Source: a virus
Taxonomy: Duplodnaviria; Caudoviricetes
Virus record (IMG/VR): IMGVR_UViG_3300010413_000114
Location: 1 to 31,774 of that record
Length of the DNA: 31,774 bases
Reading direction: 5' to 3' (one strand)
Positions 2,405 through 21,659 of this stretch are shown one piece after another (within the stretch, counting starts at the first letter, position 1; each line of letters opens with the position of its first letter). The notes beneath the pieces were generated by a model, which saw nothing but the letters and a program-made list of their open reading frames with translations, was not told the origin of the DNA and ran no database searches. A program made the translations under genes and the position numbers.

Positions 2405-2680
2405 CTATCTCCTATTAAAATCTTTTGCTGGTATTGGTGATACTGGTCGATTAGCCACCTGGATTCGAGGCTTGCCAGTTCGCCATCTGCGATAATTATC
2501 ATCCATCCAATCAGTAGCGATATCGAATGGGTTGAAACCAAATCTAAACTTCTGAGGTACCCGGTTCATTTTCTGGCCACACACCGGGCATGCTACCTCT
2601 GGGTTGTCATCAAAGCTCAGTGTTATCTCAAGCTTCGGGTGTTTGGGATCCTTACATCCATATACATATGTCGGCATCAT
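2405..2680 (-). CDS. FmdB-family zinc-ribbon protein
   Basis: MPTYxYxC...CPVCG..MNR pattern. The first knuckle is C-x4-H rather than CxxC. AGGAGG RBS; start could be 2677. Confidence 0.8.
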   Translation of the reverse strand: MMPTYVYGCKDPKHPKLEITLSFDDNPEVACPVCGQKMNRVPQKFRFGFNPFDIATDWMDDNYRRWRTGKPRIQVANRPVSPIPAKDFNRR

Positions 2681-4242
2681 TCTCCTCCTGTGATCTTTTC
2701 GTACAAACCAAACAGGTGCTTATGCTGCACATTAATATAATGGCCATCAAGCTTTATCCGGACCAGGTCATCACCCATCGGACGGATCTGTACTTCCTTC
2801 TCCTGGTGCAGAACAATAGCATCCTGAGCTTCTTGCATATTACCGCCGATATCGCCCAGCTCCAGGCCATCTTCCCTGGCACAGTAAAGGCCCAGCGTGG
2901 TGGGAATATGGAAGTAGTTGTCTCGATCCGCACATCTCAACCAGAATTCATAATCCCCTGCAGATTTCCAGTGGTCCATAAAATATCCATGACGCTGGTG
3001 CAGGTTCGCACGCCACATCGGGTGAGGCCCAATGAAACAACCATCAACCAGTTTATCTCGTTCATAGTCTGGCCAATTGAATATGCCAGGTTGATATAAC
3101 GCCCGGCCAACAATCAATGGTTTATTAAAGTTTTCCTTTACAAATTCCTCGAAGAGCTGGTTAGGTTTCCAGGTGATGAAGCTGTCATGATAGACCAGGT
3201 CCAGATCTGGCCGGGCATCCAATACACTGGACATTAGTTCATAAGCATATGGATGATGTCTATCATCCGTGTTCGCATTTGTAATATATTTCCCGGATGC
3301 AGATCTAATAGCCTGGTTCCAGGCAGCATAGACCGTGGGAATATCGGTGGTTTGGATCAACCTCACATCACAGGGATAATCCTCGTCAGCAACTACTTCC
3401 ATGGCCAGGTCAATTTCTTTACTATCTTGCTGGGCAATCAACACGATCTCCAGCTCAGTTGCTATCGTCTGCCTGGCCAGGTCAAACATACACCCCTGGA
3501 TAAAATCTTCTGCATGATAGGCTGAGACAATTGCTGACACCTTATTGTCTAGAACTGAATTCATATAATTGAGTGGCTCGATTGGGAATACTGGGCATTT
3601 GGTCCTGCTGCTGCAATTAGTGATTGATCGTCCGTTTTTCTCGAATGCTGCTTTGGCCAGGCTATATGCCAACTCGGATTTGCTTAGATCAGGTGTATGC
3701 CAACGCACACCACCACTGAAGTAGTTTTCGTCAAAGTGATATCGATCTGGACCATTAGCCACAATCGACAGGTTGGGTGCAATTTGCTCACCGTAGTCAT
3801 GATCTAATCCAACCAGGTAGACCCTCTTGAAACCCATATAGTATGCCAGCTGCAGACATACATAAGTTACCGTATGACCTTCCCATATTGGTCCTTCTGG
3901 ACTGGCAAAAATTGCAGAGTTTAGAGTAGTATCTAGTAGGATCACATCCTCGTCTTTATCCGAGAACCTCTCCTCGGTGAAGGGAGTCCTGGCCAGGAAT
4001 TTTATTGTAGGGATCCTCATGATCTCATCGATAAACTGTTCGATCACCAATGGATTAACGGCCACATAAAAGTCTGGAGTGTAATCCTTCAAGTAAATAC
4101 GATTGGTGCCAAATGTCGGACAATCAAAGTTTGGCAACCAAACATCGTTCAAGCTTGGCCCATTGCCCATGATCACGCATTCTGGATTACCAGTGCGTGC
4201 ATCACTGCGTGCAGATATGTTTGCATAATCTTCTATTCTCAT
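2677..4242 (-). CDS. Two-domain glycosyltransferase: N-terminal DUF115/Maf (CstII/GT42-like) domain fused to a GT2 domain
   Basis: N-half: CVIMGNGPSLN, FGTNRIY, PDFYVAVN, LQLAYYMGFKRVYLVGLDH. C-half: VSAIVSAY, AAWNQAIRSASGKYITNANTDD, AGDYEFWLR. Confidence 0.85.
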   Translation of the reverse strand: MRIEDYANISARSDARTGNPECVIMGNGPSLNDVWLPNFDCPTFGTNRIYLKDYTPDFYVAVNPLVIEQFIDEIMRIPTIKFLARTPFTEERFSDKDEDVILLDTTLNSAIFASPEGPIWEGHTVTYVCLQLAYYMGFKRVYLVGLDHDYGEQIAPNLSIVANGPDRYHFDENYFSGGVRWHTPDLSKSELAYSLAKAAFEKNGRSITNCSSRTKCPVFPIEPLNYMNSVLDNKVSAIVSAYHAEDFIQGCMFDLARQTIATELEIVLIAQQDSKEIDLAMEVVADEDYPCDVRLIQTTDIPTVYAAWNQAIRSASGKYITNANTDDRHHPYAYELMSSVLDARPDLDLVYHDSFITWKPNQLFEEFVKENFNKPLIVGRALYQPGIFNWPDYERDKLVDGCFIGPHPMWRANLHQRHGYFMDHWKSAGDYEFWLRCADRDNYFHIPTTLGLYCAREDGLELGDIGGNMQEAQDAIVLHQEKEVQIRPMGDDLVRIKLDGHYINVQHKHLFGLYEKITGGE

Positions 4243-5279
4243 CTCATTTCCTCTATTGTTGTGCGTAATTCTCCTAGATCAACTTCCATATTTTTACCTA
4301 CCGGGGTACAGCAAATCCCCCGGTAGTCGGCCCCGATTGCCATGGCCATGGTCATGATACATGGGTTTGCATAGTCAGGTGTGTACAATTCTATGATCTT
4401 TGGGTCCCATGAAAATACAGAATTGACCAGGCCAGATCCGTGTGGGCCTATAATAAAATCGGCATTAACGAATGCATTGACCTGGTCAATCCATGGCATC
4501 GTTTCGGGTTGAATGCGTTCTATTTCTACGGGCCACACCTCCTTCCATATCCGGGATTCGTTTACGATATGTCTTCCCTGTGCCAGTTCCCGAGATATAA
4601 AATAATTCTTTGGTAGTGTTAGTAATAATGCCTGTTCCCAAACTGTACGCCTTAACCAATCTAATGCTGTAGGATCTGTTCGGCCATTAGATCTGCGGAT
4701 CGTAGGCAGGACCAGGTTCTTAGCCCCTATGTGCATGGATGTGGTGGGGAGATGGCGTAATGATATGATGGATCTCTCGGCTCCTAACAGGAATCGTAGA
4801 CTATCGTACTGCCATTGTGGTGGGTTCTCCTCGAGTAAGATTACAACCTTCTGGTTGGTCATAGCTTCATAATGTAAAATGCCTTCGAGCTTCGGCAACC
4901 ATTCTATAATCCAATGGAAGTAATTACCGGACCACACCCCCACCATCGGGAATAACGGATCTTCGATTACATACCCAGGCTTGGCCATTGATTTGAGGGC
5001 CAGCATGTAATAGGGTTTGTTTCGGTCCAGGACATCTAGCCTGTTAGCATATGCTGTATCAAGTATCACATCCCCATCTTTGAAACCAACCATTGCTGGT
5101 CCACATAGATCTACGTCATGGATCTCATGGACCAGGAACCTATCGAATACATGTAGTCCTGATTTCTCCTGGAATTCAGCTGGCCAATTATCCTGGCTAT
5201 CTATTCTTAAGGCACATGGATAATTGTCCACGAACCAGGTGGCATGTGCTATTTTATGTATCGTGTTATTTGATATCAT
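4239..5279 (-). CDS. Glycosyltransferase family 61 (DUF563-like)
   Basis: NYFHWIIEWLPKL, YFISR...RHIVNE, QVNAF..ADFIIGPHGSGLVNSVF: hallmark GT61 motifs. Confidence 0.88.
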   Translation of the reverse strand: MISNNTIHKIAHATWFVDNYPCALRIDSQDNWPAEFQEKSGLHVFDRFLVHEIHDVDLCGPAMVGFKDGDVILDTAYANRLDVLDRNKPYYMLALKSMAKPGYVIEDPLFPMVGVWSGNYFHWIIEWLPKLEGILHYEAMTNQKVVILLEENPPQWQYDSLRFLLGAERSIISLRHLPTTSMHIGAKNLVLPTIRRSNGRTDPTALDWLRRTVWEQALLLTLPKNYFISRELAQGRHIVNESRIWKEVWPVEIERIQPETMPWIDQVNAFVNADFIIGPHGSGLVNSVFSWDPKIIELYTPDYANPCIMTMAMAIGADYRGICCTPVGKNMEVDLGELRTTIEEMR

Positions 5280-6039
5280 CGACTTCCACTATCCATCTGG
5301 ATTGATCATCTACGATGTAATCCTGCTGAACATACTTGATCCATGCCATTAATTCTACCAGGCCAAAGTCTTTATCTTCACCTATTAAATGCCCGGTGTG
5401 AATTGATATATCAGTATAAATTGGATATCCAGCTTTGCGGATCTTCTGGGATAGATAAAAGTCTTCACCAGCTCCATTGTTTCCCTCCATCACGCACCAT
5501 GGTTTGCTAATGTCTTCAAGTACATCTCGCCTGATCATTGTGAAATGTAGACCCACTCCATCTCGTGGGACCAGGTCGTCCTTCTCCTGGGGAAGGCACA
5601 TCGCATTGCTGCTTGCACTCTCATCAATACCATACTTCTTTGCTTTCTCGATGATCAGTTTGGCGATATCGGCAAATGCATAGATATGTTTACCTTCTTT
5701 GGTAGGACCTAAGTATCTGCCCATGGTGGGTGTCGGTGGTAATGACCTGGTGTACATGCATGCTGATACAACTGGTAGATCATGCAGCATCAATCGTTTG
5801 ATGGCCTCCCCGGACCACACCGCATCGTTATCAATGAACAATAAGAACCGTGGTTTTTCAGGATTGTCTATAAAATTCTGGATCAGATGATTGCGTGCAA
5901 CATCAACCCCCATGCCGTACAGTCTATTAAAATAAATGGGTGCAGGTTTCCATGAGTATAGAAGCGAGTCCACAAATGCGCCCATAAAAGGTTTCGTATA
6001 TGGGACACATACCTGCACACCAGATGTCAATACATCCAT
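5266..6039 (-). CDS. GT-A fold (GT2-like) phage glycosyltransferase
   Basis: VDVARNHLI, LLFIDND (DxD), GLHFTMIRRDVLE, GEDFYLS, TGH. Start moved from GTG 6072 (inside a hairpin) to ATG 6039. Confidence 0.85.
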   Translation of the reverse strand: MDVLTSGVQVCVPYTKPFMGAFVDSLLYSWKPAPIYFNRLYGMGVDVARNHLIQNFIDNPEKPRFLLFIDNDAVWSGEAIKRLMLHDLPVVSACMYTRSLPPTPTMGRYLGPTKEGKHIYAFADIAKLIIEKAKKYGIDESASSNAMCLPQEKDDLVPRDGVGLHFTMIRRDVLEDISKPWCVMEGNNGAGEDFYLSQKIRKAGYPIYTDISIHTGHLIGEDKDFGLVELMAWIKYVQQDYIVDDQSRWIVEVDDIK

Positions 6040-6051
6040 AATTGCAGGGTG

Positions 6052-6078
6052 GGGCAGGTGCCTGGGTGACACCTGCCC
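6052..6078 (-). other. GC-rich stem-loop between the cement gene and the glycosyltransferase cassette
   Basis: GGGCAGGTG-N9-CACCTGCCC perfect 9-bp inverted repeat. No U-tract follows on the coding strand, so it is not a classical intrinsic terminator. Confidence 0.6.
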
Positions 6079-8382: not shown

Positions 8383-11300
8383 TTACTGTATCGGACTGTA
8401 TTGCATAAACTGTGTGACCAGGATCTCATCAATGAAGGTATCGAGATCCCCACCGGGCCGACCCATATCTTCCCAGATCTTACGTACTGCTATTCTGGCA
8501 CCATCTGAAAGCGGATCTCCGGTCCAGTAATAGCCCATCAAGGAACGAACCAGGCTAGTGGGCATCTCATCAATATTCACTTGTACTTTCTTCTCATAGT
8601 TATTTCCAAGCACATCTTCCGCAATTGATTCTACAGACTTAAGATATGGGATCATTTCCGGGTACATGCTCAGGAAGGAATCTTTGTGGTCCCAGAAGTC
8701 GATCAACTGTGGGAATTCCTTCAGATACTGTCGCTTGGCATTGCGTGTTGGTTGCTCATAGTAACCATTCTGTATATCGTAGATCTCATCACCCCAGAGG
8801 GTTTCGACCTGACCGTAATACTGGTAGTACAACGCTTGGGCCTCAGCTGGAGCACCTTTCATTTTCGCTTGATCACTAAGCACGTACTCAATGATGTCCG
8901 GATGTTCTGATAGATAAACCGTTTGCCAATCATAGTAGTCGTCAAACATGGGCATCTCGTCAGAGATTTTCTGTCTTTGATTTTCAGGTAGAGAGTAGAG
9001 CATATCCCACATCCGACTCAGGTGTGGGAACCGGGTATTACGTTCATCAACGTAGGCCTGGTACTGAGTGTCTATCTCGGGTGGGGAGAACTCGAACTCC
9101 ACCTGCGGTAATTCGGGCGCACTAGTAGGTACATACTCGCCCATTGTCTTGGACCACAGTGCAAGGGTTGCGGTGTCTATGCTGTCATAACTGCGAGTTT
9201 CCTTATCAAGGAAGGCATTCTGGAATACATCACCTAATCGTTCGGTCACCTCCTTTTTTTGTAGGCTAGACAATTTATTATTGTAGGCATCCCAGATCTT
9301 AGACCGCATTAGCATTCGCAGTCTTTCTTCTGGGTCATCAATAAAGCTTTGTTTCCTGGCCTGATATTCTGGGTATTCATCGAAGAATTTCCCAACGGTG
9401 TCTTCATATTTGCCACCATTGACCCAGGCCTCCATGGCTTTGTCATAATCATTCTTCAATGCTCGTTGCTTCTGTTCTCCTTCTGGGAACAGATCTACAC
9501 CGAAGGGTCCACCAATCCATCTTAGCTGGCCCGTAGCTGCTACCCTACGTTCTGCTTCCTCGAATGCAGGTCCTGAATATTCCACCTGTGCTCTCAGTAT
9601 TTCTTCTGTATCCCATCCTTCTGCAGCCATGTTGGATAGCTCACGTTCTATTCTATAATCCTGCCACATGTCCTGCTCTGGGAGGCCCAGCTGCTTTCGC
9701 AATGGAGCTTCTATATTGATGCCCTTGTTGGACCCACCGAGCATACCACCCAACATTCCTGTGATGTTTTGTATGGTCCTGGAGATGGGTAGCTGGCTGA
9801 TACGTTCTGGTCTACCTTTATAGACTTCGTACGCCCAGGTCAGTGGAAGGGACCACCCAAGTAATACCCGGCTGAATTCTATTGGTGAAGTGATCTCGGG
9901 TTCCACATCCAGGTAAGCCTTGCTGTAAGCTTGTTCCCAAACAGGTCCCTCGAGATTAGTCAAAGCTAGTTTAGCTTCTTCTGGTGTGATCTCCCCGTTC
10001 TCCACCTGGTTCTCAATTATTCCCTGCGCTCGTTTATTGATCAGGTTCTGTTCTTCTGCGTATGCATCATAAGGCCTGGTCAGCTGGGTGAAGGGAAATA
10101 GCTTCTTGAGTGGATCCATGTACAGACCACCACCCATCCATTCTGGCAAGAACGGTGTTGGCATTCTGATCTTATTCTCGAGGCGTTTTGGAAAACCAGG
10201 TTGTTGTAATGCTTTGGTTTGTGCAGATCTCAGCCTGGCATAGTTCGCAAATATTGCAGGACTATCCATAGCACGCAAGGCCCACTTAGCTGCAGACCTG
10301 GTGTACCAGAATTGATAGGGCATGATAGCTTGCAACAGGTTATCAAAGTTATATCTCTTGTTGTAATTCAGAAGAGCTGAGTCCCTCTTCATCTCACCGT
10401 ACCTGGTTGCTGCAAGCTTCGTATCATTCTGCTGACCATACACATTACCCATATATCCACGCAGATCTCGCATGGTTTCTTCTGGAATAGCCTGGCCAAC
10501 ATTCTGGATTCCTTCCGGGATCACTGCATCATCACTTGCTATTCTTTCCCTGGCCCCATCGAGTAGTGGTTTCAATATTGTTTCATAACCATCCAGTGCC
10601 ATCCAGCTCTGGGGTGCATTGTCATCTATGTCACCAACAGACCCAGGTGGAAGGTTCATAGCTGGATTATCTTCTATCTGAGGCAGGTTCAATTCCCGGC
10701 CATCTTCCATCTGGAAGAGGATCGAAGGGTTCTCAGGATCATAGAGTCCACCATTGTAGATTGATTTGACCTGCTTACTGTCGAACACCACATAGGATAT
10801 TGCGTCAACCCGATCAGCTGCTCTACCGTTTCTCCATACATCAATGTAGTCAGGGAATATGAAACCATCATAACCATTAGATCTTGCAATCCTGGTTAGA
10901 TCTGTCGAGTCATTTAGGACCTTCATCAATACCCATGGTATAGCTGGAGCAGCACGCCCCTGATCAGTGTACAGTTTAGTGATCTTGTTGTAGATGAATT
11001 CTTCTGTTAGTCCTTCTGCTGCAAATTCCGGAATTGATCCAATAGCCTTTGCCAGGTCCCTGATTGCATCAACGGATGAGTCATAGCTATGTTTCAAATT
11101 GCTAAGATCTAGAGGGTTCTCCATTTTAAGATTGACAGGTTTTATTCTTGCATTGTTCCATTCACCTGCCATCTCTGATGCATACCTTGGATCATCTGTA
11201 AAATACATCCATCCTCTGACACCCTGCCTCGGATCGAAGATATCAAAGTCGGCACCATCGTAATTCATTTTGCTGGTCCCATGATAGACTGTCTTTGGTG

Positions 11301-14300
11301 CGCCATCTTCATCCATAATCTTGGACTCGCCAAACCATTTCATGAAGTTCTCAGCTCTGGCATCGGGTGGTTGGATCCTTGCGTATCCTTGTTCGGTCCG
11401 GATCTTGTACTCTTCGATCTCTGGGTATTCAGCTAATAGCCTGTCGTATACACCTCTCATCTCATCTGTAAGATTTGGCAGCTGTCCTTTTGCCCTTGCG
11501 TAGATCGTTGCAATCCATTCCTTTAGCTGCTCGAATACTCTTGCTAATCCCTCGACCGGGGCCTTACCTTCTCGTAGATACTGCACCCAACCATCAGCGA
11601 ATTTCTCCTCTGCTGCCCTGGTCCATACACCGTTCTTCGCCCCAGCCCAATCCTCAGCTATCTTCAGATCTGCAGCATCAAGATCTCTCCGGAATATATG
11701 ACCCACTTCATGTAGGACCGTTGTCAGATCTGGATTGTTCAGTGCATGAATAATGGCCTTGCCGTCATCTAGGAATGACACCGCACCTCGTGCTGTTTCA
11801 CCCATCATCTGATCATAGGACATCTTGTATAGTACATTGCTGTCCTTGTCGGTTAGGCCAATCATCCGATCAAAGATACCTTTCACTGTATCGTTGACTG
11901 TTGCTTTATATGCTGTGTTCGATTTGACCTTCCAATAGATTCTGCTCAACCACTCGTTGAACTTATCGAACATTGGCTGCAGTCTCTCGGGTATTGGCAA
12001 TCTGTATGTCCCACTGGTAACATAATTCTTTCGTTTCTTAAGATAGATTTCGAACCAGGTCCCAACTTTATTTAGTGCAGCTTCATTCCATTCGGCTCCT
12101 GCTTTCAGTCCTGCTTCAGCTTTCAATATTGAACTATCATCTGGTGTTAGATACTTCACGAATACTGGCATCAATGAGTTAGCAAAATCCCCAACATTAG
12201 TTGCATCACTGAAGGCGTGCATAATAGCTTTGCCATCATGGCCGAATTCAACAGCTGATCTATTGACACCATTCAATACCATGTTGATGATATCGCCACC
12301 ATCACCACGTTTGAAACCACAGCACACACCACAGGTAGAACAACGACCAGTGCCACAACACAACTTGGACCAGGCCTTGTCTGTGAATTCATCCATGGTT
12401 GCATCAGGCCCAGCCCATTTGTGCAGGAAGTCTTCATCTATAGCCTTGAAGAATTCTGGGACCTTGCGTGAGCTATACATGTTGGCCAATATATCTACAG
12501 TATTGGGGCCTAATACTTCCTTCAAATGTGGATCTTGATAATCCCATACGATCTTGAATATATCCGGATCGACATTGCCATGGTATAGAGTAACCACATC
12601 GAACCGATCATCCATAATAGCTTTGACGGCATCTTCTGCATTCATGGCCACATAACGAACAGCTACTCTTGGATTGTCTTTTGCCAGTGCTGCTGCTTCA
12701 TCTATGTCCCAACCAAATGATATCTCTCGGTTCGCAGTTGTCAGTGACTCAACTAACATGCTTTGTTGTCTCATTACGAACTTAGCCATCTCTGGTAATT
12801 CATCAGCTGGCATACTCTTGATCACATCAAGTCGAGGCATCATTGCATCAATCTCTTTAGGACTATGACCACCAGCTTTCAGCAATTGTCTATTCTGTTC
12901 AATCAATTGTGTAAGTGCAAATTCAGATAATGCATCAGCATGTTGTGGGTTGTAATCGGTGGAGAGATTGAAATAGACATGTTCGTACTGGCCGTATCTT
13001 TCCAGTGCTTCTGGTTGTTTGGTGATCATCTTTAGATTCAGACCACGTTCTGCAGCATCAGCTACTGCCTGGTCCAGGACCGGGATATCCATCTCTTGAA
13101 AATCACCAATGCTAAACACCCTCATTCCACCGGAGGCATTCAAGAAGTCAACTGTATCCTGTGGCATATCTAGTATTTGCATAGACTCATATGGTGCAGA
13201 TTCGTATATCAGGTTTGGATTAACAGGTCCTTTCTGTATACCCACAGCTTTTTTGGATCTTGGCAAATCAACATAACAGATTATGCATGAACGATTCATT
13301 TTCCTGAATGGACAATTAGCAGAAACATCTAAGGCCATTAGTGTTTTGTCATTCAAATGAACTGCATTAAACCCCTTCATTTTCTTGCCAGTGACCGGGT
13401 CTATTATTGGCAATCCTGTATCGGGATCCTTTATTTCAAATGACCTGTTCTTCCTCATAATGAAGTTAACAAAATCATCAAAGTATTTATCTGAATCCTG
13501 GCCATGAACCTTATTCAAATATTCTGTGACTGCCATGTTGTCGATGTCTGGTAGTGCAGTTTTGTATATCATCCCGGTCGCAGTAGAATCATATTGCGAT
13601 CTCTTCACACCACCCCAGTTGATAGATACAAAGTGATCTGGATCTATACCTGCAGTCTCGGCCACAGCTTCTACTAATGCGCCTACATACTTGGCCTGTT
13701 CGGGTGTGACTCGGGTCCCGGTATTCTGTATCTGACTAACAAACTCGGCCAATGTTTGCGGTGGTGTAATGGTTTGTTCAGGCCTGGCAGATCCCTTTAG
13801 ATATGCACTGTCAGGTAGCATCTGGAATAGAGATGACCGTGATGGTTTCTCGTTGGTGATCTCAGCAAAGTGGGTTGCATAATATTCTTCAGGTGTCTTG
13901 CCATACTTCTTGGCCCAGAGATTAGCTCTTCGATCAATGACATCAATCACCACCTGTGCTTCTTCTGGCCACAGTTCAAAGTAGTGCATCAAGTCCATAT
14001 GGACCTGCATCTTATTCATACCCAGTGCAGCTGCAGCCATGTTCTGTTCACCGAATAATGGACCACCCACTTCACCACTGCCAGCATTGACGGCACCTTT
14101 CATCCTCAGCTGGGACTGCATTGCATCTTCCATGCCGGGCAGTATTGGTTGTGGTTCTTCACCTGGTTTGAATTTACCACCCTTAGCTTCTTGCATTTCT
14201 AGTGTGAGCTTCGGCCGTTCTTCTGGGAACATGCTCAGTTGTTCTGCAGGTTGGAATAGAATGGATGGTCCATCGGTGTAGTTGCCGTCATGCCAGATGG

Positions 14301-17300
14301 ATTTGATCTGGTTCGCCCGGAATGCCACCCAGGAATAATCGTTTGTTACATTACCAAATTCGTCAACCACGCCTTCTACTGCATTGATATATTTCAGACC
14401 ATCGTAACCCAGATCCTCAATATAATTTCTTAGTACCCTCCACTGTAATTGCTGAGAATCTTTAAACTGACGTTCCCATGCAAAGTATTCTGCATCGGTC
14501 CACTTCTCACCTTCAACATATTTAGATATAAACTCTCCGTATGTTTCGCCTTTGACTTTATCTATCTCATTTATAAGTTTCATTGACTCTCTAAAACTTA
14601 TGTAATTTCTTTTTTCCATATCCTCAATGAGCTTATAAGGATCAAACGCATCCGATACTTCCATAGGATTTACAATCTTCAATATGACCGGAAGGATCCT
14701 GGAATTCTCGGGGGGTGCAGTGTCCAATAATCCAAACATTTGCAATCTGTCATTGGCAGCTTTTGCTGTACCAAAGTGAAACCCTATATCAGATGATCTT
14801 GCAAAGATAGTGAATGGTTGTTCAGCATCGGTACCGTGGTATACAACTAGTGGCATACCATTAGATTCTGATACAGCACTTTCTCCAAACCAGCGCATAC
14901 TTGCTTCATCACCAACCTGATACAGTATCTCGGGGAGAGTGTCATCCTTAGCTGTGGACCTGGCTGCATCATCAAGATTGGTAGCACGCCTGATGTATTC
15001 CTGGATCTCCTTGGCATAGGGGATCGTCTTCATGATGTCATCCATCTCGGGGATGGTTGGCTCGGCCGGGTATTTCAGATCAGCAAGCCTGGCCTGGATC
15101 GCAAGGTAATCATCGATCAGGTCCTGGGATGCATCCTTTGGCATGGTCAATTCAAGGTCAGTCAATCGAGCTTCTACTTTCTCAAGCTGTCCTTCTATCG
15201 TGATAATACGGGGATCTCTGAGAGTCTTCTCGACATCATTCAGTTCTCGTCTAAATAGATTCTCGGAAAAGTCCAGGCCCAATGATGCTCGAACATCAGA
15301 TCTATTTCCTATGTCACCCAGTGCTATTTCCCTGAGGGACCTGGTTATAGCCACATCAACTGCCTCACCTTTAATCATGTCTTGAAGAGCACCTACGATC
15401 GCATATTTCTTTCGCCTGGTTGCAGGTATATCGTTATTCGGATTATTGTAGTAAGTCTGCTTGAAGGTTTCGTACCATACCGGGTAAGTCTTTGGTAGAG
15501 TGCTTTCGTATCTGCCTTCAATATAGATATCTTGTGCTGGTTGTCCCATCTCGATCTCGGCCAGCATTTCACCTAGTCTTTCCTCGAGTGCTGCCCTTAC
15601 AACTTCATCACCGATCTCACTAATAGGCACAGTTGCATCCAGGATCTGATGCTCTACTGGATGTAACTTCCTTCCTAGCATCATTTCCTTTTTCAGATCT
15701 CGAACCTTAGCCACTGCTGCAAGGATCTCTTCTGGTGTATCGATCAGTGATAGGTTTAGTTCTCGTGCTACCTCCAGGTGCTCTGGCATATCAGCTGTAA
15801 ACAACCACTCGTTTACATAATTGGTCAGCTGTTCTGTTGCCTCGGGTGTCAATGCCTTAGTGACCGCACTAACTTCCCTTTCAATTCTTTGTAATTTCTC
15901 CTCGATGTAACCCCAATCGGGATATGTTTTGGTCAGCTCTCTGAAGACATCACCTGCACCTTCAGCTATGATACCGATATCCCGGTTCTCCATTGCCTTG
16001 GGTAGTTGCTCAACGGTATCGTTCTGCCAGTTGTACCATTCAAGATCCTGCTCTTTAGGTGGTTGTATCTGCCAGTATTGGACATCGACCCCGGACTCCT
16101 TCATCTCTTTGCGTTTCTCGAACACTGCCCGGGCCAGCTCTTCAGTAATATCATTGAAGGTATAAACATCATCAGCTTGTTTGGCCAGGTTTGGATCATC
16201 AAGGATGGGACCGTATTTCTTTACCGTCTGATATATTCGGCCATCAGCACCACGTTTATAGTGACCTGCAGTATCAGCTGTTTCTATTCCATATTCCTGG
16301 GCAACCTTCCTTACCTTCCCACGCTGGACCCTTTGGTATTCCTCATATGCCATTCGCCAGATATCGTTCAGCTCTTCTGATGTGCGACCACCAAGGGCCT
16401 CATGGATCTGTTCGATGTCATCAAGTGCAGCACCCAGCTGTTCCCAATCCTGAGATACCACAGCTTCACCGAGTTTCTTTTGTGCTACCTCGGAGGCCTT
16501 TCTATTTCTCAGGTCGATCAGTTCTTGCTGCCTCATTGCTGATATAGCATCGGCAGCTGATCCAATTATCTTAGGTTCAGGTGGTGGTGGTGCTTCTGGG
16601 ATCTCCGCACCCAATGCTGCTTTCTCGGCAGGTCCTTCCATTCCAACAGGGGTTACTTCACCTGGTACTGCTGGTTCCATGGGTTTAGGTCCACCTTCTG
16701 GTGCAGCATGTGTGGGTGGTGCGCTTGGTTCTGGACCGGGACCTGGTTCTGTTGGTGGTGCTTTCTCCTCGCCTACACCCATGATCTTGCGGATCATTTC
16801 CCTAACACCAACTACATTGCGTTCATACTTAGATAAGATCTTCTCGTAATAACCACCACCTGTCTGCAGGAAATTACGCCAGGCATCATGTCTCTTCTTA
16901 CCTTTGATTGTCTTTAGTCTTTCCTGGAACTTGTCCATCTCCAGGTTCATTTCTTTGACGATATTGCGAACACCCTCTCTCCATTCTGTAACAGCTTGTT
17001 TGCCAATGTCACCAAATTGATTGTATGCAAGCTCGGCCAGGTGATTATCCATAGCTTCCATCAGCTGCATCTCTTGGTCCATTCTTATACGTGATAGCTC
17101 GTTGATCGTATCTACTGTACTGGACCATCCTGCATCACGTTCAACCTTGGATTTCCATTGCGTACCCCAGAATTCATCTAATGCTTTTTGTTTCGCATAA
17201 TAGAATTCTTTATTGTTCAACATCTTTTCTTCTACAAATCGCAACAACTCCAGGGTATCAGGACCGCATACACCCAGGCCTTGAGCAATGCCCAGGTAGT

Positions 17301-20300
17301 GTGCTTTCTCGATCATGTAGTATCTATTCCAGTGTGCAGTTTCCTGTGCTCTGGTCTTCTGGTACAGTGCGGATCGTGCATCAAAGTCAAGCTTCTCCCC
17401 GGCCAGGAAGGCAGCTTCCCAATGTTCATATCCAGCTAACCATCTTTGCGTGTACTGTTCTTGGAGCTTATCCCATATCGGCAGCACACCAACCAATCCT
17501 TCACCCTGTGCAGAGGTAGCAAGTGCAGCCTGTTCGGTCATAGCTTTTGTTTCTCGTGTGATCATCTCGTCTAGCTTCTTAACGATATGCTCATCTAAAC
17601 TATTGAATACATCCATGACCTGTTCAGGTGTGACTGCATCTACTAGACGCTCATCCAGGAATTCTTTCACCCCCAACTTGCTGATCAAATCCGTAGCCTG
17701 GTTGATGTCTAATGGTATACCTGCAGCCTGAGATTCCTTTACCATATCATCGACTGCCCAGCTCAACCCCCGGCGTTTTATATTGGCCCACAGTCTATTC
17801 TCAATAGCTTTCTGTGATATTCCACCTTCAATAATTCCGTATATCAATTCGGGTAGATCTGGATTGAGTGCTCTTAGATCATTCTCCAGGATAGCTGGCA
17901 TTCGATCGAAACCTAATCCCCTTCTCCAGTTAGTATCATAAAATTGTTTGGTAGCTATCGTATATCCTTGGGCCGAGGCATGAGCTTCAGCGTTAGATGA
18001 CAATGTTTGGAAGACCTGGATCTTCTCAACCCCTTTCGATCTTAGTATGCGATTGACCTTGTTTAGGAAGTCAGTCTTTTTCGTTGCCTCAGTTAATCCA
18101 GTGTAATCAACATTAATCCCGGTGGCATAAGGACCTTGGCCATCACTATATCGGACCGGGCGCATACCCTTTCCCAACATTTCATCCCAAATCTTGGCCC
18201 GGGATGCTGGTGTATTGAAACCGAATATACCCTCAGCTATGGATACCACCGTGTTATCGATCGTGTTGTTGAAGAAGTAAGTTGGGTTAAGCCCGAGCAG
18301 CAAGAAGCTTTGTGATGCCTTCATCGTGTTAGATAATCGGACCCACAGTGGATCAGGTTTCACACCGAACCAGGTTGCTGCCCATTTGCTCATGTGTTCC
18401 ATCTGTGCTCCAACCATAGCTTTCTTAAGATGATCGAAGTCAACAAATGTATTATCGTTGGTGAAGGGAAGAAGCTTCTGTCTTAGATTGTCGGCATATA
18501 AGGTGCCATCCTCAATACTCTTGATTATGAGCTTGGCTGCATCAGTATCTGTTTCATATGCTGCACGCTTTATAGTCTCGAACACAGCATCGAACTCTTT
18601 TACTTCTTTGATCTTTTGCAACAACCCAGATGTGGAATCCTTTAGCATATCCCTTACAGCATGGAAGATCCCACGGTTCCAATCATATGCCTTGAAGTTA
18701 TCTACCATTTCTGTGGCCGTGGGCATAAAGTCTTTGCTGGCCATTGGTATCACCCGGGCATCAGGTGATTGTATTGCCTTCATTGAAAGCTCAGTTGCCA
18801 ATTCATCTGGCGTATTACTGATCTTATCGACCAGGCCCAGTAGCTCATCTTCATTCTTGGCCGTGTCATAAACCTTCATCAATACATCAGCACCATGGTT
18901 TAGAGTCTCACCAGCTCTGGCCTTTGGCTGCAGCTGGAACAGCCAGGATACTGCACGAATGGCAGCGTTGTTACTTGGTTTGTAATTCACGGATCGAGGC
19001 ACGCCATCTTTAGTAACATCACCCAACCACCTGGCCACGGATCCCATGGTAGCTATCTCTTCTGCAGGTACAGCTCTACGTAATATGGCACCATAGGTTT
19101 GGAACACTTTTGGCACACCACCCTGGACTCTTGCTGCCATCTGGAGATATTTGTTTTTGGTAAGCCCGGCATATGCTTTGATTGGAGCTTTGGTTATAGG
19201 TCCTGCAACATTCAGCGGATCGAGCGCAACTTGTCCAACCAGGTCCGAGGTAATAGCATTCAGGTTTAGCATGCCGTCAACGTACATAGCACGCTCCATG
19301 ATCTCCCTTACATTGGCATCTGGATTACTGACCAGCTCATTGAAGACACTCCATACCAGATCATCACCAGTAATAGGTGCCTCCATTGGTGCAGCAGCTC
19401 CGAGATACCACTCCTCACCTGGTCCAGCTATGTAATCAAATATTTGTTCTGGATGTTCTATCTTCCCCTTCTTCATTGCCTCAGCTACACTAGCAAGATT
19501 CCATATTCCTGATCCACCACCACGAGAAGTTGCCATACCACGAAACATCCTTGCTAATCCAGGTATTGCATCCTTCCACTCAAGATCACCACTGTCCTCT
19601 TTTTCCTTGAGCCAACTGTATGTATCTTCCAAGTGATACATAACATCAGGGATTCCAGCTGACTGACCAGATTCATAGTATGCAAGGTTCGCTTCATATG
19701 CCTGAGGTAGATTAGCAAGAATAGTTTCCAGGTCCCTTCCTTCTTCTGGGTATCTCCATGCATTCCATAACATCTCCCCTGTACCCAGTGCTCTTTCCAT
19801 ATGTTCAGCTGGTACGTTCAACCACTTAAGAATATTGCTGACCAATGGCATACCTGGAGCTTCAGGATATTTTTGTGCAAGCAGACCCACTCCTCCCAAA
19901 CCTGCACCCATAGCACCACCAATTAATGTCCCAACACCAGGCGCACCAAATGTACCCATGACGGCACCCATCAATGTTGGCTGCACAATACCACCACCAG
20001 CTGTCATCAACCCCTGCATTGTCTTCATCCAGGTAGGTAGCTCTTCGTATTGTTTGTTGGTGAGTCCACCTAGTGCAGGGTTCTGGATGTCTTCCTCGGG
20101 GATCGTGCTATATGGTTGCTGCCATCCTCGTCTGATGTCAGATAGTGGTACTCTTCCACCCGGGTAATACTCTCGAATACCTGCCCATGGATCCTTGGGT
20201 GGCTGGGGTAGGTTCAATAGCTCCAATGATGTGGGATCATCGTAGGGCAAATAATTCCACAACCACCATGGTTTACCTGCATTCTGTTCGGAGAGCTTCT

Positions 20301-20661
20301 TATACGCATCCCCCATGACCTTGGCGTTATACCAGGGTGGCATTGCAGCCTGACGCTGGATCTCACTGTCAAATGGTTGGGTTTCTTTGATGGCCTGGTA
20401 CCTGGCTATTCGTTGTGGGTTCTCCCAATATCCCCGTACATAATTCTGCCAGTATTGTTTCTGTGGCCACCACGGTTTGACAAATGAGAACCCACCAGCT
20501 GATGGTTGTTGTACTGGTTCTGGTTCTTGTGCTGGTCCCACTGGTCCTGTTGCTACAGGTGTCTTCCCCTTCAATGCATAATAGCTTGGTGCATCGGGCG
20601 AATAGCTTGGACCAGAAGGTTTAGCTGGCTCTTGTGGTTGCTTCTTCAGCCAATTTAACAT
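8383..20661 (-). CDS. Giant polyvalent virion/ejection protein (~4,092 aa)
   Basis: Uninterrupted 12.3-kb ORF. Start moved to ATG 20661 (TGATG coupling). N-terminal Gly-zipper hydrophobic segment, two ART-PolyVal-like domains, an HEVGH zincin motif and a Cys-rich GP88-like domain. Confidence 0.88.
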   Translation of the reverse strand: MLNWLKKQPQEPAKPSGPSYSPDAPSYYALKGKTPVATGPVGPAQEPEPVQQPSAGGFSFVKPWWPQKQYWQNYVRGYWENPQRIARYQAIKETQPFDSEIQRQAAMPPWYNAKVMGDAYKKLSEQNAGKPWWLWNYLPYDDPTSLELLNLPQPPKDPWAGIREYYPGGRVPLSDIRRGWQQPYSTIPEEDIQNPALGGLTNKQYEELPTWMKTMQGLMTAGGGIVQPTLMGAVMGTFGAPGVGTLIGGAMGAGLGGVGLLAQKYPEAPGMPLVSNILKWLNVPAEHMERALGTGEMLWNAWRYPEEGRDLETILANLPQAYEANLAYYESGQSAGIPDVMYHLEDTYSWLKEKEDSGDLEWKDAIPGLARMFRGMATSRGGGSGIWNLASVAEAMKKGKIEHPEQIFDYIAGPGEEWYLGAAAPMEAPITGDDLVWSVFNELVSNPDANVREIMERAMYVDGMLNLNAITSDLVGQVALDPLNVAGPITKAPIKAYAGLTKNKYLQMAARVQGGVPKVFQTYGAILRRAVPAEEIATMGSVARWLGDVTKDGVPRSVNYKPSNNAAIRAVSWLFQLQPKARAGETLNHGADVLMKVYDTAKNEDELLGLVDKISNTPDELATELSMKAIQSPDARVIPMASKDFMPTATEMVDNFKAYDWNRGIFHAVRDMLKDSTSGLLQKIKEVKEFDAVFETIKRAAYETDTDAAKLIIKSIEDGTLYADNLRQKLLPFTNDNTFVDFDHLKKAMVGAQMEHMSKWAATWFGVKPDPLWVRLSNTMKASQSFLLLGLNPTYFFNNTIDNTVVSIAEGIFGFNTPASRAKIWDEMLGKGMRPVRYSDGQGPYATGINVDYTGLTEATKKTDFLNKVNRILRSKGVEKIQVFQTLSSNAEAHASAQGYTIATKQFYDTNWRRGLGFDRMPAILENDLRALNPDLPELIYGIIEGGISQKAIENRLWANIKRRGLSWAVDDMVKESQAAGIPLDINQATDLISKLGVKEFLDERLVDAVTPEQVMDVFNSLDEHIVKKLDEMITRETKAMTEQAALATSAQGEGLVGVLPIWDKLQEQYTQRWLAGYEHWEAAFLAGEKLDFDARSALYQKTRAQETAHWNRYYMIEKAHYLGIAQGLGVCGPDTLELLRFVEEKMLNNKEFYYAKQKALDEFWGTQWKSKVERDAGWSSTVDTINELSRIRMDQEMQLMEAMDNHLAELAYNQFGDIGKQAVTEWREGVRNIVKEMNLEMDKFQERLKTIKGKKRHDAWRNFLQTGGGYYEKILSKYERNVVGVREMIRKIMGVGEEKAPPTEPGPGPEPSAPPTHAAPEGGPKPMEPAVPGEVTPVGMEGPAEKAALGAEIPEAPPPPEPKIIGSAADAISAMRQQELIDLRNRKASEVAQKKLGEAVVSQDWEQLGAALDDIEQIHEALGGRTSEELNDIWRMAYEEYQRVQRGKVRKVAQEYGIETADTAGHYKRGADGRIYQTVKKYGPILDDPNLAKQADDVYTFNDITEELARAVFEKRKEMKESGVDVQYWQIQPPKEQDLEWYNWQNDTVEQLPKAMENRDIGIIAEGAGDVFRELTKTYPDWGYIEEKLQRIEREVSAVTKALTPEATEQLTNYVNEWLFTADMPEHLEVARELNLSLIDTPEEILAAVAKVRDLKKEMMLGRKLHPVEHQILDATVPISEIGDEVVRAALEERLGEMLAEIEMGQPAQDIYIEGRYESTLPKTYPVWYETFKQTYYNNPNNDIPATRRKKYAIVGALQDMIKGEAVDVAITRSLREIALGDIGNRSDVRASLGLDFSENLFRRELNDVEKTLRDPRIITIEGQLEKVEARLTDLELTMPKDASQDLIDDYLAIQARLADLKYPAEPTIPEMDDIMKTIPYAKEIQEYIRRATNLDDAARSTAKDDTLPEILYQVGDEASMRWFGESAVSESNGMPLVVYHGTDAEQPFTIFARSSDIGFHFGTAKAANDRLQMFGLLDTAPPENSRILPVILKIVNPMEVSDAFDPYKLIEDMEKRNYISFRESMKLINEIDKVKGETYGEFISKYVEGEKWTDAEYFAWERQFKDSQQLQWRVLRNYIEDLGYDGLKYINAVEGVVDEFGNVTNDYSWVAFRANQIKSIWHDGNYTDGPSILFQPAEQLSMFPEERPKLTLEMQEAKGGKFKPGEEPQPILPGMEDAMQSQLRMKGAVNAGSGEVGGPLFGEQNMAAAALGMNKMQVHMDLMHYFELWPEEAQVVIDVIDRRANLWAKKYGKTPEEYYATHFAEITNEKPSRSSLFQMLPDSAYLKGSARPEQTITPPQTLAEFVSQIQNTGTRVTPEQAKYVGALVEAVAETAGIDPDHFVSINWGGVKRSQYDSTATGMIYKTALPDIDNMAVTEYLNKVHGQDSDKYFDDFVNFIMRKNRSFEIKDPDTGLPIIDPVTGKKMKGFNAVHLNDKTLMALDVSANCPFRKMNRSCIICYVDLPRSKKAVGIQKGPVNPNLIYESAPYESMQILDMPQDTVDFLNASGGMRVFSIGDFQEMDIPVLDQAVADAAERGLNLKMITKQPEALERYGQYEHVYFNLSTDYNPQHADALSEFALTQLIEQNRQLLKAGGHSPKEIDAMMPRLDVIKSMPADELPEMAKFVMRQQSMLVESLTTANREISFGWDIDEAAALAKDNPRVAVRYVAMNAEDAVKAIMDDRFDVVTLYHGNVDPDIFKIVWDYQDPHLKEVLGPNTVDILANMYSSRKVPEFFKAIDEDFLHKWAGPDATMDEFTDKAWSKLCCGTGRCSTCGVCCGFKRGDGGDIINMVLNGVNRSAVEFGHDGKAIMHAFSDATNVGDFANSLMPVFVKYLTPDDSSILKAEAGLKAGAEWNEAALNKVGTWFEIYLKKRKNYVTSGTYRLPIPERLQPMFDKFNEWLSRIYWKVKSNTAYKATVNDTVKGIFDRMIGLTDKDSNVLYKMSYDQMMGETARGAVSFLDDGKAIIHALNNPDLTTVLHEVGHIFRRDLDAADLKIAEDWAGAKNGVWTRAAEEKFADGWVQYLREGKAPVEGLARVFEQLKEWIATIYARAKGQLPNLTDEMRGVYDRLLAEYPEIEEYKIRTEQGYARIQPPDARAENFMKWFGESKIMDEDGAPKTVYHGTSKMNYDGADFDIFDPRQGVRGWMYFTDDPRYASEMAGEWNNARIKPVNLKMENPLDLSNLKHSYDSSVDAIRDLAKAIGSIPEFAAEGLTEEFIYNKITKLYTDQGRAAPAIPWVLMKVLNDSTDLTRIARSNGYDGFIFPDYIDVWRNGRAADRVDAISYVVFDSKQVKSIYNGGLYDPENPSILFQMEDGRELNLPQIEDNPAMNLPPGSVGDIDDNAPQSWMALDGYETILKPLLDGARERIASDDAVIPEGIQNVGQAIPEETMRDLRGYMGNVYGQQNDTKLAATRYGEMKRDSALLNYNKRYNFDNLLQAIMPYQFWYTRSAAKWALRAMDSPAIFANYARLRSAQTKALQQPGFPKRLENKIRMPTPFLPEWMGGGLYMDPLKKLFPFTQLTRPYDAYAEEQNLINKRAQGIIENQVENGEITPEEAKLALTNLEGPVWEQAYSKAYLDVEPEITSPIEFSRVLLGWSLPLTWAYEVYKGRPERISQLPISRTIQNITGMLGGMLGGSNKGINIEAPLRKQLGLPEQDMWQDYRIERELSNMAAEGWDTEEILRAQVEYSGPAFEEAERRVAATGQLRWIGGPFGVDLFPEGEQKQRALKNDYDKAMEAWVNGGKYEDTVGKFFDEYPEYQARKQSFIDDPEERLRMLMRSKIWDAYNNKLSSLQKKEVTERLGDVFQNAFLDKETRSYDSIDTATLALWSKTMGEYVPTSAPELPQVEFEFSPPEIDTQYQAYVDERNTRFPHLSRMWDMLYSLPENQRQKISDEMPMFDDYYDWQTVYLSEHPDIIEYVLSDQAKMKGAPAEAQALYYQYYGQVETLWGDEIYDIQNGYYEQPTRNAKRQYLKEFPQLIDFWDHKDSFLSMYPEMIPYLKSVESIAEDVLGNNYEKKVQVNIDEMPTSLVRSLMGYYWTGDPLSDGARIAVRKIWEDMGRPGGDLDTFIDEILVTQFMQYSPIQ
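10710..11350 (-). other. ADP-ribosyltransferase-like (ART-PolyVal-type) domain, copy 2, in the giant protein
   Basis: FMKWFGESKIMDEDGAPKTVYHGT...F..F...MYFT...NPL...GYDG...YVVFDSKQVKSIYNGGLYD. Confidence 0.75.
11425..11795 (-). other. Zincin metallopeptidase-like domain (HExxH) in the giant protein
   Basis: RGAVSFLDDGKAII...TTVLHEVGH (11698-11712)...EEKFA (candidate third Zn ligand). Confidence 0.75.
12315..13380 (-). other. GP88-like / radical-SAM-like Fe-S domain in the giant protein
   Basis: C-x8-C-x2-C-Y (13273-13314), GGMRVFSIGDF, ITK, NLSTD, and the C-terminal cluster CCGTGRCSTCGVCC (12319-12360). Confidence 0.6.
14250..14900 (-). other. ADP-ribosyltransferase-like (ART-PolyVal-type) domain, copy 1, in the giant protein
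   Basis: RWFGESAVSESNGMPLVVYHGT...GFHFGT...NP...GYDGLKYINAVEG...WVAFRANQIKSIWHDGNY. Confidence 0.75.
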
Positions 20662-21659
20662 CAGATATTCCACCTGACCATGGCCATCATCCAATCAGGT
20701 ATCTGTCTATTTTGATTTCTATTTTGATATCCCATATATTTGGATGATGGTCCATAGCTGTAATTGCTTGGATATTCTGTTGGCGTTGATGGTTGTCCAC
20801 CTCCACCACCTCCACCACCTCCACGGCCTCCACGACTTCCACCACCTCTATATCCTCCACCACCTCCATATCCTGTATCTGGTCCTTGCTGTTGTGGTGG
20901 CATTGGTTGTGGCCTGACCACTGGATTGATGTATCGATCTTGACCGCTATAGCCCATACGTGTAAGCAAATAATCTATCCATGCTCCACTAGAATAACCT
21001 TCATCCCAGAATGGTCCGAAGTGTGGGACTACACCTTCTTCTAGTAAGTAATTGGTGAAGTCTTGTGACTCGTATTCTGGCATTCCTGTTTCCGGATTGT
21101 AGATGATGTTGCCGAACTCATCACGCTTGAAGACATCAGCCTTTGGTAATGATGGGTTGAAGAAGACACCTGTCTGATCAGTGGGTGGATTCAGCTGTGT
21201 GTTCATTGCATAGTTGTACCAATCCTGTGTGGTCCAGGTTGATTTGTCGGCAGCATTATATGGAGGTGCAGGTTGCAATCTATATTGATCTGGTGTCATT
21301 CTTCCTCGTGCTCCACCTGGTGTAAATCCATAAGGACCTGGTACTGTTGCACCTCTGTATTGGTAATAGCTTGGATATCCAACACGCTGGTATTGGTTCT
21401 GTCGCAAATGCTGCCCGGTCAACCATGCTGGTGTTCCAAATCCTACTGGTTCCTGAGGCACTTGTTCTACTTCATATGGTGGTGGTTGTGGTGGTCCAAC
21501 TTGCTTTGTATGTTTAGCTGGTTTCCTACGTGATGGATATGTGGCAAGATTTGAGAAGTCAACACCATACTTGGCCAATGCTTTCTTGGACCCACCCCTG
21601 GCACTACCCTGGCTAGCTGTTGATCTTGTTGGTGTTTTGTATTTGAATCTTACTGGCAT
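20661..21659 (-). CDS. Low-complexity P/Q/G/Y-rich protein with RGG tract (putative internal virion/ejection protein)
   Basis: 332 aa; basic N-terminus, poly-Gly/RGG segment; translationally coupled to the giant protein. Confidence 0.7.
   Translation of the reverse strand: MPVRFKYKTPTRSTASQGSARGGSKKALAKYGVDFSNLATYPSRRKPAKHTKQVGPPQPPPYEVEQVPQEPVGFGTPAWLTGQHLRQNQYQRVGYPSYYQYRGATVPGPYGFTPGGARGRMTPDQYRLQPAPPYNAADKSTWTTQDWYNYAMNTQLNPPTDQTGVFFNPSLPKADVFKRDEFGNIIYNPETGMPEYESQDFTNYLLEEGVVPHFGPFWDEGYSSGAWIDYLLTRMGYSGQDRYINPVVRPQPMPPQQQGPDTGYGGGGGYRGGGSRGGRGGGGGGGGGQPSTPTEYPSNYSYGPSSKYMGYQNRNQNRQIPDWMMAMVRWNI

Follow-up and report, generated by a model that had tools for sequence, protein, structure and literature searches.

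A nested A-B peptidase unit and its predicted radical-SAM-fold cargo in a giant polyvalent phage protein

Two questions about the giant polyvalent proteins of phages date from 2017: by what route new modules enter them, and whether the peptidase that they contain processes the chain. Both are raised by one gene of the IMG/VR virus record IMGVR_UViG_3300010413_000114 (Duplodnaviria; Caudoviricetes), which comes from an uncultured phage. The window analysed here, which is 31,774 bases long and estimated to be 48% complete, holds on its minus strand an open reading frame (ORF, 8383-20694(-)) in one frame of which all the motifs named below are found. The modules of its product read, from N to C terminus, ART1, A1, A2, cargo, B2, B1 and ART2, where ART denotes an ADP-ribosyltransferase-like domain, A a helical front half and B the core of a zincin-like peptidase (coordinates in Table 1). 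An earlier note, made from the letters alone, had read this order as one A-[cargo]-B unit inserted into the cargo slot of another copy, after which the inner peptidase decayed. The reading at which we arrive is that of an injected polyvalent protein built of nested slot units, with a dead inner scaffold and an outer peptidase that cuts at short tripeptide tags near module ends, and a rough probability of 0.6 is given to it as a whole.

The class to which the protein belongs is known. Several biochemically unrelated domains, among them ART and a zincin-like peptidase, are joined in one chain, and the gene is placed among late genes, as has been described for phage polyvalent proteins (Iyer et al. 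2017, PMC5512222), with the terminase genes on one side and the major head gene on the other. Giant late-region proteins joining ART-PolyVal and zincin-like peptidase domains were thus already on record, as the earlier note held, and several peptidase copies per chain as well as self-processing have been described or proposed for them (PMC5512222). What appears to be new is the slot, the nesting, a candidate cut motif and an unnamed cargo family: none of these was found in the literature searched, which took in freely accessible papers, and the slot, the nesting and the radical-SAM cargo are absent from the available text of PMC7824862, PMC9503650, PMC13434306, PMC4819975 and bioRxiv 10.1101/2023.09.18.558157. 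The earlier note had likewise singled out the architecture and its cargo as what looked new.

The unit on which the argument turns is a predicted zinc peptidase in two parts, the front half A and the catalytic core B, which flank a slot whose cargo can be exchanged. The two B cores align with each other as had been claimed (z=21, with 0 of 2,000 shuffles scoring as high), B1 having the zinc motif HEVGH and B2 having no zinc site. In the outer B the two histidines and the glutamate of HExxH, together with a downstream glutamate, are invariant in 22 of 22 aligned homologues; both HExxH and the downstream glutamate are absent from B2 in the window and in its relative L002, which makes B2 a homologue and not an active member. 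No Pfam family matches B1, and a B profile run against PDB sequences returned nothing below E 0.02. The resemblance of A1 to A2 had been conceded to be weak, and in pairwise comparison it is indeed at chance level (score 23 against a shuffled mean of 21, with 560 of 2,000 shuffles as high), while self-BLAST of the giant protein gave no off-diagonal matches. However, a family profile built without the window's protein finds both (43.8 bits for A1 and 23.7 for A2, with none of 241 reversed or shuffled controls above 5.7), as does a profile from which L002 was also withheld (39.1 and 25.5 bits, reversed controls at most 6.7), and because profiles drawn from other proteins find both halves well above controls, A1 and A2 are taken to be homologous. 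A would very probably pack on B; a single-sequence fold of A1-B1 was too poor to use, with a predicted local distance difference test score (pLDDT) of 38.6.

Further evidence comes from a survey of 82 B-bearing proteins. With B1 as query, 41 proteins of 2,256-7,181 amino acids (aa) were collected, the window's own included, and to these were added 41 de-replicated viral-contig proteins from 83 B-bearing ORFs (the 80 best of 477 loci plus earlier loci). All were collected through B, so that an A without B could not show up, and family sizes are lower bounds. An A unit scoring at least 10 bits is present in 50 of the 82 and always lies upstream of B, leaving 32 in which none is seen at that threshold. 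A few of these 32 are truncated in the part ahead of B (P0022, L044) and most belong to a more distant B group, in which A-like helices are weak (12.4 bits in gp32 of the Cobetia phage Carin1), and since most are distant or cut short, the missing A is likely a failure of detection. Cargo does vary between conserved A and B flanks, which had been put forward as a check on the insertion: in seven of the homologues from the B1 search the A-like helix pair runs straight into B, forming empty units, and across 49 homologue units the A-B distance ranges from about 0 to 1,578 aa (at most 16 aa in nine), with contents that differ among homologues. These contents include ART-PolyVal (P0004, P0005 and P0038, and P0019 by similarity), RadC (P0002) and LPD3 (P0011), according to a Pfam scan that covered 29 of 40 homologues. 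The commonest is a shared block of up to about 600 aa, without a Pfam match, in P0003, P0009, P0010, P0017, P0018, P0030, P0033 and P0038. Some members of the set deserve a description of their own. P0002 holds two complete tandem units (aa 1381-1970 and 2374-2582) in the order A-B-A-B, one loaded with RadC and one empty; P0015 and P0023 likewise have an empty A-B unit; the B cores of L035 and L046 have a variant zinc motif, HExxxH, and are otherwise typical; and the cultured Carin1 gp32 (L112:1198-9762) combines its A with an intact HESGH core and, between the two, a slot of about 880 aa in which a VLFQ tag is found.

The arrangement A1-A2-cargo-B2-B1 recurs in identical order in L002, and nested units are found in these two of the 82 proteins. 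A different phage, L021, carries a single A-[same cargo]-B unit within a 2,882-aa ORF, with HELGH intact and with similar linkers on both sides of the cargo. In a B tree of 25 rows the inner B of the window and of L002 groups with P0011, L021, P0014, P0020 and P0021 and stands apart from the other 18 rows, among them the outer B (97/95), a grouping that was also obtained with mixture models (88/83; Shimodaira-Hasegawa-like approximate likelihood ratio test 96). An approximately unbiased (AU) test under LG+G4 with 138 columns rejected a clade of inner and outer B (p=0.011), and with it a local duplication of the outer B as the source of the inner one. The best matches of A2 include the A units of P0014, P0020 and P0021, as well as those of P0015 and L032; A1 is matched best by A units from proteins with a B of the B1 group. 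The cargo tree joins the window with L002, L021 and L022 (86/95). With empty units, variable cargo, a free-standing L021 unit that retains its zinc site and a tree that separates inner from outer B, the nested architecture is well supported by sequence comparison. The inner unit likely came from another phage lineage, in which case a whole A-[radical-SAM-fold cargo]-B unit would have filled the slot of a resident unit. The insertion as first proposed is supported, but the inner unit is not a duplicate of the outer one.

The same data bear on a simpler history, in which B was duplicated in tandem beside an unrelated Fe-S domain and A1 and A2 are merely unrelated helices. Two outcomes had been named from the start as pointing that way, namely non-homology of A1 and A2 and homologues with B but without A. 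The second stands in part, in the 32 proteins without a detected A, and the chance-level pairwise score of A1 and A2 would also suit a tandem origin. However, the first did not come about, given the profile results; the inner unit stands alone in L021; the clade that such a duplication calls for is rejected; and real tandem units, as in P0002, read A-B-A-B and not A-A-B-B. Simple tandem duplication is thus largely refuted and very improbable.

The fate of the inner peptidase differs from the decay that had been supposed. Both B2 copies, in the window and in L002, read DFANS in place of the zinc helix, and they are the only B domains with neither HExxH nor HExxxH in a set gathered by searches that favour intact motifs (a third row without the motif is the second piece of the interrupted B of P0017). 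Between the window and L002, B2 is 50% identical and A2 60%; the cargo reaches 49% (54-57% over its core), the ARTs 45-51% and B1 65%. Synonymous sites are saturated or close to it. Neutral decay of B2 is ruled out by this conservation, which is level with that of the ARTs and cargo while synonymous sites are saturated, and which marks B2 as a maintained dead enzyme. It has likely been kept as a folding scaffold, which would keep A2 in place and complete the loop that encloses the cargo.

The cargo had been described as a Cys-rich, Fe-S-like domain. The first half of that description is borne out by cysteines kept in 19 members of its family; the second is corrected to a predicted radical S-adenosylmethionine (SAM) fold with C-x8-C-x2-C and a further cluster of cysteines. 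In Pfam, PHROG and NCBIfam the domain falls into no named family, and PDB sequence searches with its profile gave nothing credible. An AlphaFold model of the domain (pLDDT 83.9, predicted template modelling score 0.84) has the partial (beta/alpha) barrel core of the radical SAM superfamily, and when it was compared by VIA-align with 48,161 solved chains, ranks 1-34 were all radical SAM enzymes. Spore photoproduct lyase came first (Z 8.2, root-mean-square deviation (rmsd) 4.8, 226 aligned residues), with GDGT-MAS and ChlB tied within 1. Compared with the minimal-core members spore photoproduct lyase (4FHC), viperin (5VSL), PFL-activating enzyme (3C8F) and QueE (5TGS), the cargo shares a predicted partial barrel over about 190-226 residues (Z 6.8-8.2) and three cysteines after the first strand. 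It differs from them in its cysteine spacing, in a C-terminal cluster of four cysteines, in an identity of only 8-13%, and in being fused inside a virion-type protein. The canonical radical SAM motif is C-x3-C-x2-C, a spacing that the cargo does not have.

The family was reached through a free gene of 231 aa in Moorella phage MTATph1, which matches the cargo at E 1e-9 and aligns with it over its full length, two helical insertions excepted. Homologues of similar or greater length did not emerge from word-index searches with the cargo, and pattern scans with the window's cargo or a two-sequence query recovered L002 at best; once the Moorella phage protein had been included in the query, 14 metagenome loci, 1 genome locus and 11 viral loci were found. 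Members are mostly free genes of about 220-245 aa and also occur as parts of 2,800-4,900-aa ORFs (L021, L027-L030), where L027-L030 form a separate subfamily with C-x9-C-x4-C that in L030 likewise lies between A and B. In a 19-member alignment, from which near-duplicates, two intein-bearing copies, the broken L017 and the Moorella protein were left out, C2461 and C2473 of the cluster after strand 1 are present in 19 of 19 rows and C2470 in 15, being shifted in the four C-x9-C-x4-C members (residues are numbered from the TTG at 20694). The six main cysteine positions are kept throughout, bar one substitution and the spacing variant of those four. K-T, C, C-Y, R, D, ITK, R, H and the C-terminal cysteines are invariant; within the core, K-T, R-x4-GD, ITK, S-x-D, R and H are retained by the window, by L002 and by the 19 members. 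Pfam Radical_SAM (PF04055) matches 2 of the 19 at E<=1 (best 2.1e-5). Two free-standing members, L019:115-1971 (+) and L018, are interrupted by an intein that the third motif cysteine follows. The location of an intein just before the third cysteine fits a catalytic position.

The cargo would probably be an active enzyme binding [4Fe-4S] and SAM, with the caution that a shared fold alone does not show function. Among its conserved residues, Lys, Arg and His are located on the predicted barrel strands or at their ends, and the substrate may accordingly carry phosphate. We tentatively put forward a nucleotide or nucleic acid as the most likely option, and a protein target as a less likely one. 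The contrary view takes the cargo for a remnant that lacks catalysis or binds zinc, and the entire inner unit for a passenger in the course of being lost; it can point to the non-canonical cysteine spacing, to the lack of a Pfam match for the window's copy and to there being two known nested copies. However, cysteines and core positions are kept in the window, in L002 and in the 19 members, and the cargo core remains 54-57% identical between the window and L002 in spite of saturated or near-saturated synonymous sites, so that a remnant is very unlikely.

Assignment of the cargo to GP88/DUF7227 was also considered. These families are its language-model neighbours (0.90-0.93), the motif order of L5 gp88 is similar, and a Foldseek search of a viral library returned a GP88-domain protein (probability 0.90, E 0.03) as well as a large unnamed phage protein (E 1e-5). 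The assignment was dropped because none of the 19 members matches PF17338 (GP88) or PF23872 (DUF7227) at E<=1 and the cargo profile does not match L5 gp88 (probability 0.1%); GP88/DUF7227 is at most a sister family.

Whether the outer peptidase acts on its own chain is a question of the tags, tripeptides of the form L-F/Y-Q (strict definition [LIVMF][FY]Q). LYQ or LFQ sits before ART1, at the end of ART1, after A1 and at the end of ART2. Tags ending in K, S or A are typical of the donor-type group, and the inner unit here is alike in this respect (IYK, LYK). Across the survey a strict tag lies no more than 23 aa upstream of the B core (HExxH) in 35 of 82 proteins, against a background of 2.4% of windows. 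A strict indel search gave only 1 event, and a looser search of module boundaries was used instead, in which 12 of 64 swap-boundary windows (16 swap events, 19 related pairs) carry a strict tag against 2.6% in the background; several boundaries without one have the near variants YYQ, YNQ or WFQ. The codons of the tag vary while the peptide is kept, so that selection likely acts on the protein, and a DNA-level recombination site is disfavoured by the same difference in codons. The tag could be part of the fold of B, directly before which it so often stands, but it is not merely that, since it also ends modules outside the slot: both ARTs and an extra 214-aa module in L002 (L002:962-1600 (+)). 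This last module, which follows the LFQ of ART1 directly and has an LFQ at its own end, has no Pfam match and is absent from the window.

In the reading favoured here, the intact B1 would cut the chain at these tags and free ART1, the inner unit and ART2. On sequence grounds this step is possible, a little short of an even chance. Self-processing has been proposed for the polyvalent class, and DdrB of phage P1, which has such a peptidase domain, is processed (PMC5512222). The principal alternative keeps the same nested history with nothing cut: the tags would be hinges, or points of unfolding and threading, and by-products of recombination, the chain would be ejected in one piece, and B1 would be directed at the host, for instance at its cell wall or at a defence protein. 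It is suggested by the virion RNA polymerase (vRNAP) of N4, which has a zincin motif and is packaged uncut, and by ArdC and TraC1, which are transferred whole (PMC5512222), as well as by gp47 of phi24B, proposed by its authors to be a conduit whose peptidase domain targets peptidoglycan (bioRxiv 10.64898/2026.04.10.717836). The tags are also variable, 9 of 16 swap events have none, and a dead B2 would be needless to keep if the cargo were simply cut out. Against an uncut chain stand the tags that close modules outside the slot, the invariance of all four zinc-site residues of the outer B in the 22 homologues, and the processing of DdrB. We regard the uncut chain as the less probable account, and one that merits serious consideration.

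Besides the parallels of N4 and phi24B, several observations count against the nested, self-cutting reading. A strict tag follows A in only 8 of 42 A units and stands at either end in only 7 of 16 swap events; it varies by lineage (LFQ as against LYK or LYS), so that the outer peptidase would need to tolerate both; and the possible place of the tag in the fold of B has been mentioned. No A is detected in 32 of the 82 proteins, and the A-like score of BPP-1 Bbp10 is just 3.3 bits. Only two nested copies were found, and the B tree that separates their inner and outer cores has 138 columns, places the inner B on a long branch and was subjected to the AU test without a mixture model. The A2-likeness of A tracks the B2-likeness of B only moderately (rho 0.52 over 27 homologue units, among which kin are not independent). 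As for the cargo, its best Z is 8.2 with an rmsd of 4.8, its cysteine spacing is non-canonical, Foldseek against the PDB gave no match at E<=0.001 (the highest probability being 0.72, for PFL-activating enzyme), and the window's own copy has no PF04055 match.

In the nested, self-cutting reading the giant protein would be packed in the head and injected with the DNA. Injection is highly probable by analogy, considering the late-gene position and the parallels with Bbp10 and phi24B gp47. B1 matches 49 records from cultured phages, among them BPP-1 Bbp10 (32% identity, E 3e-11), which is listed as an internal virion protein D homologue in Table 2 of PMC4819975. The podovirus internal virion or ejection proteins Bbp10 (PMC4819975), phi24B gp47 (bioRxiv 10.64898/2026.04.10.717836) and N4 vRNAP C1 (PMC13434306) are likewise very large virion proteins with an HExxH domain, gp47 and N4 C1 being likened by description; unlike the window's protein, none has a nested dead peptidase or a radical-SAM cargo in the descriptions available.

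Both ART-like domains proposed in the earlier note were recovered. Each, scored alone, passes the curated PF18760 cut-off of 31.2 bits, and the two align with each other (z=23). The His (strand 1) and Asp (strand 5) of the active-site set H, Y, D are present in both; the likely strand-2 position reads M-Y-F in ART2 and F-H-F in ART1, with the same His in L002. The sequence indicates that the activity of ART1 may differ from that of ART2. The two domains would ADP-ribosylate host targets early in infection, which seems reasonably likely from their sequences. ART1, in both the window and L002, also does not have a following aromatic residue that some relatives have.

A more far-reaching proposal can be made, although it is doubtful. 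The split zincin may be a self-excising carrier that closes on any module ending in L-F/Y-Q and cuts after ejection, with phages trading both effectors and whole carriers; here one carrier would have been swallowed by another and become a scaffold for the delivery of injected radical-SAM enzymes of a new family, which would act on nucleotides or DNA during the first minutes after infection begins. Since the locus provides a defined slot, a candidate cut motif and a pair of intact and dead peptidases with a known donor-type unit, self-processing is directly testable in cultured relatives (e.g. Carin1 gp32). The locus also defines an unnamed radical-SAM-fold family, members of which occur either as small genes of their own or as cargo within giant virion-type proteins.

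Table 1. Features of the giant gene in the window, in N- to C-terminal order
Feature	Position	Strand	Details
Giant polyvalent, internal-virion-type protein	8383..20661	-	4,092 aa from ATG 20661; 4,103 aa from TTG 20694
ART1, ART-PolyVal	14251..14916	-	aa 1927-2148; LYQ before, LFQ at end; PF18760 48 bits
A1, helical front half of outer unit, long Trp-bearing type	13840..14013	-	profile without this protein, 39-44 bits
LFQ tag opening outer slot	13822..13830	-	sequence; kept in L002
A2, helical front half of inner unit, short type	13597..13761	-	profile 23.7-25.5 bits
IYK tag variant after A2	13569-13561	-	sequence
Cargo domain, predicted radical-SAM fold	12310..13377	-	aa 2440-2795; C-x8-C-x2-C 13314-13276; CC-x4-C-x2-C-x3-C 12360-12319; two helical insertions
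B2, inner peptidase core without zinc site	11857..12267	-	DFANSLMP 12189-12166 replaces HExxH helix
LYK tag closing inner unit and outer slot	11824..11832	-	sequence; FYK in L002
B1, outer zincin-like peptidase core	11425..11805	-	HEVGH 11712-11698; downstream conserved Glu 11607-11605 (EEKFA)
ART2, ART-PolyVal	10711..11367	-	LFQ at end; PF18760 61.7 bits

Of the two start codons, the ATG, which overlaps the stop of the upstream gene, is the likelier. The giant gene is preceded by small and large terminase genes and a 609-aa gene, the last of which has no family match and is a portal gene by position only, and it is followed by a 245-aa gene and the major head gene. The N- and C-terminal blocks of the giant protein are common to related giant proteins. 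Directly after the head genes (2677-6072 (-)) come three sugar-transferase-like genes, namely a GT2 fused to an MptE-like domain, a GT61 and a 268-aa gene without a family match, which possibly serve virion or host-surface glycosylation; at least the GT61 gene and the 268-aa gene are also present in L002.

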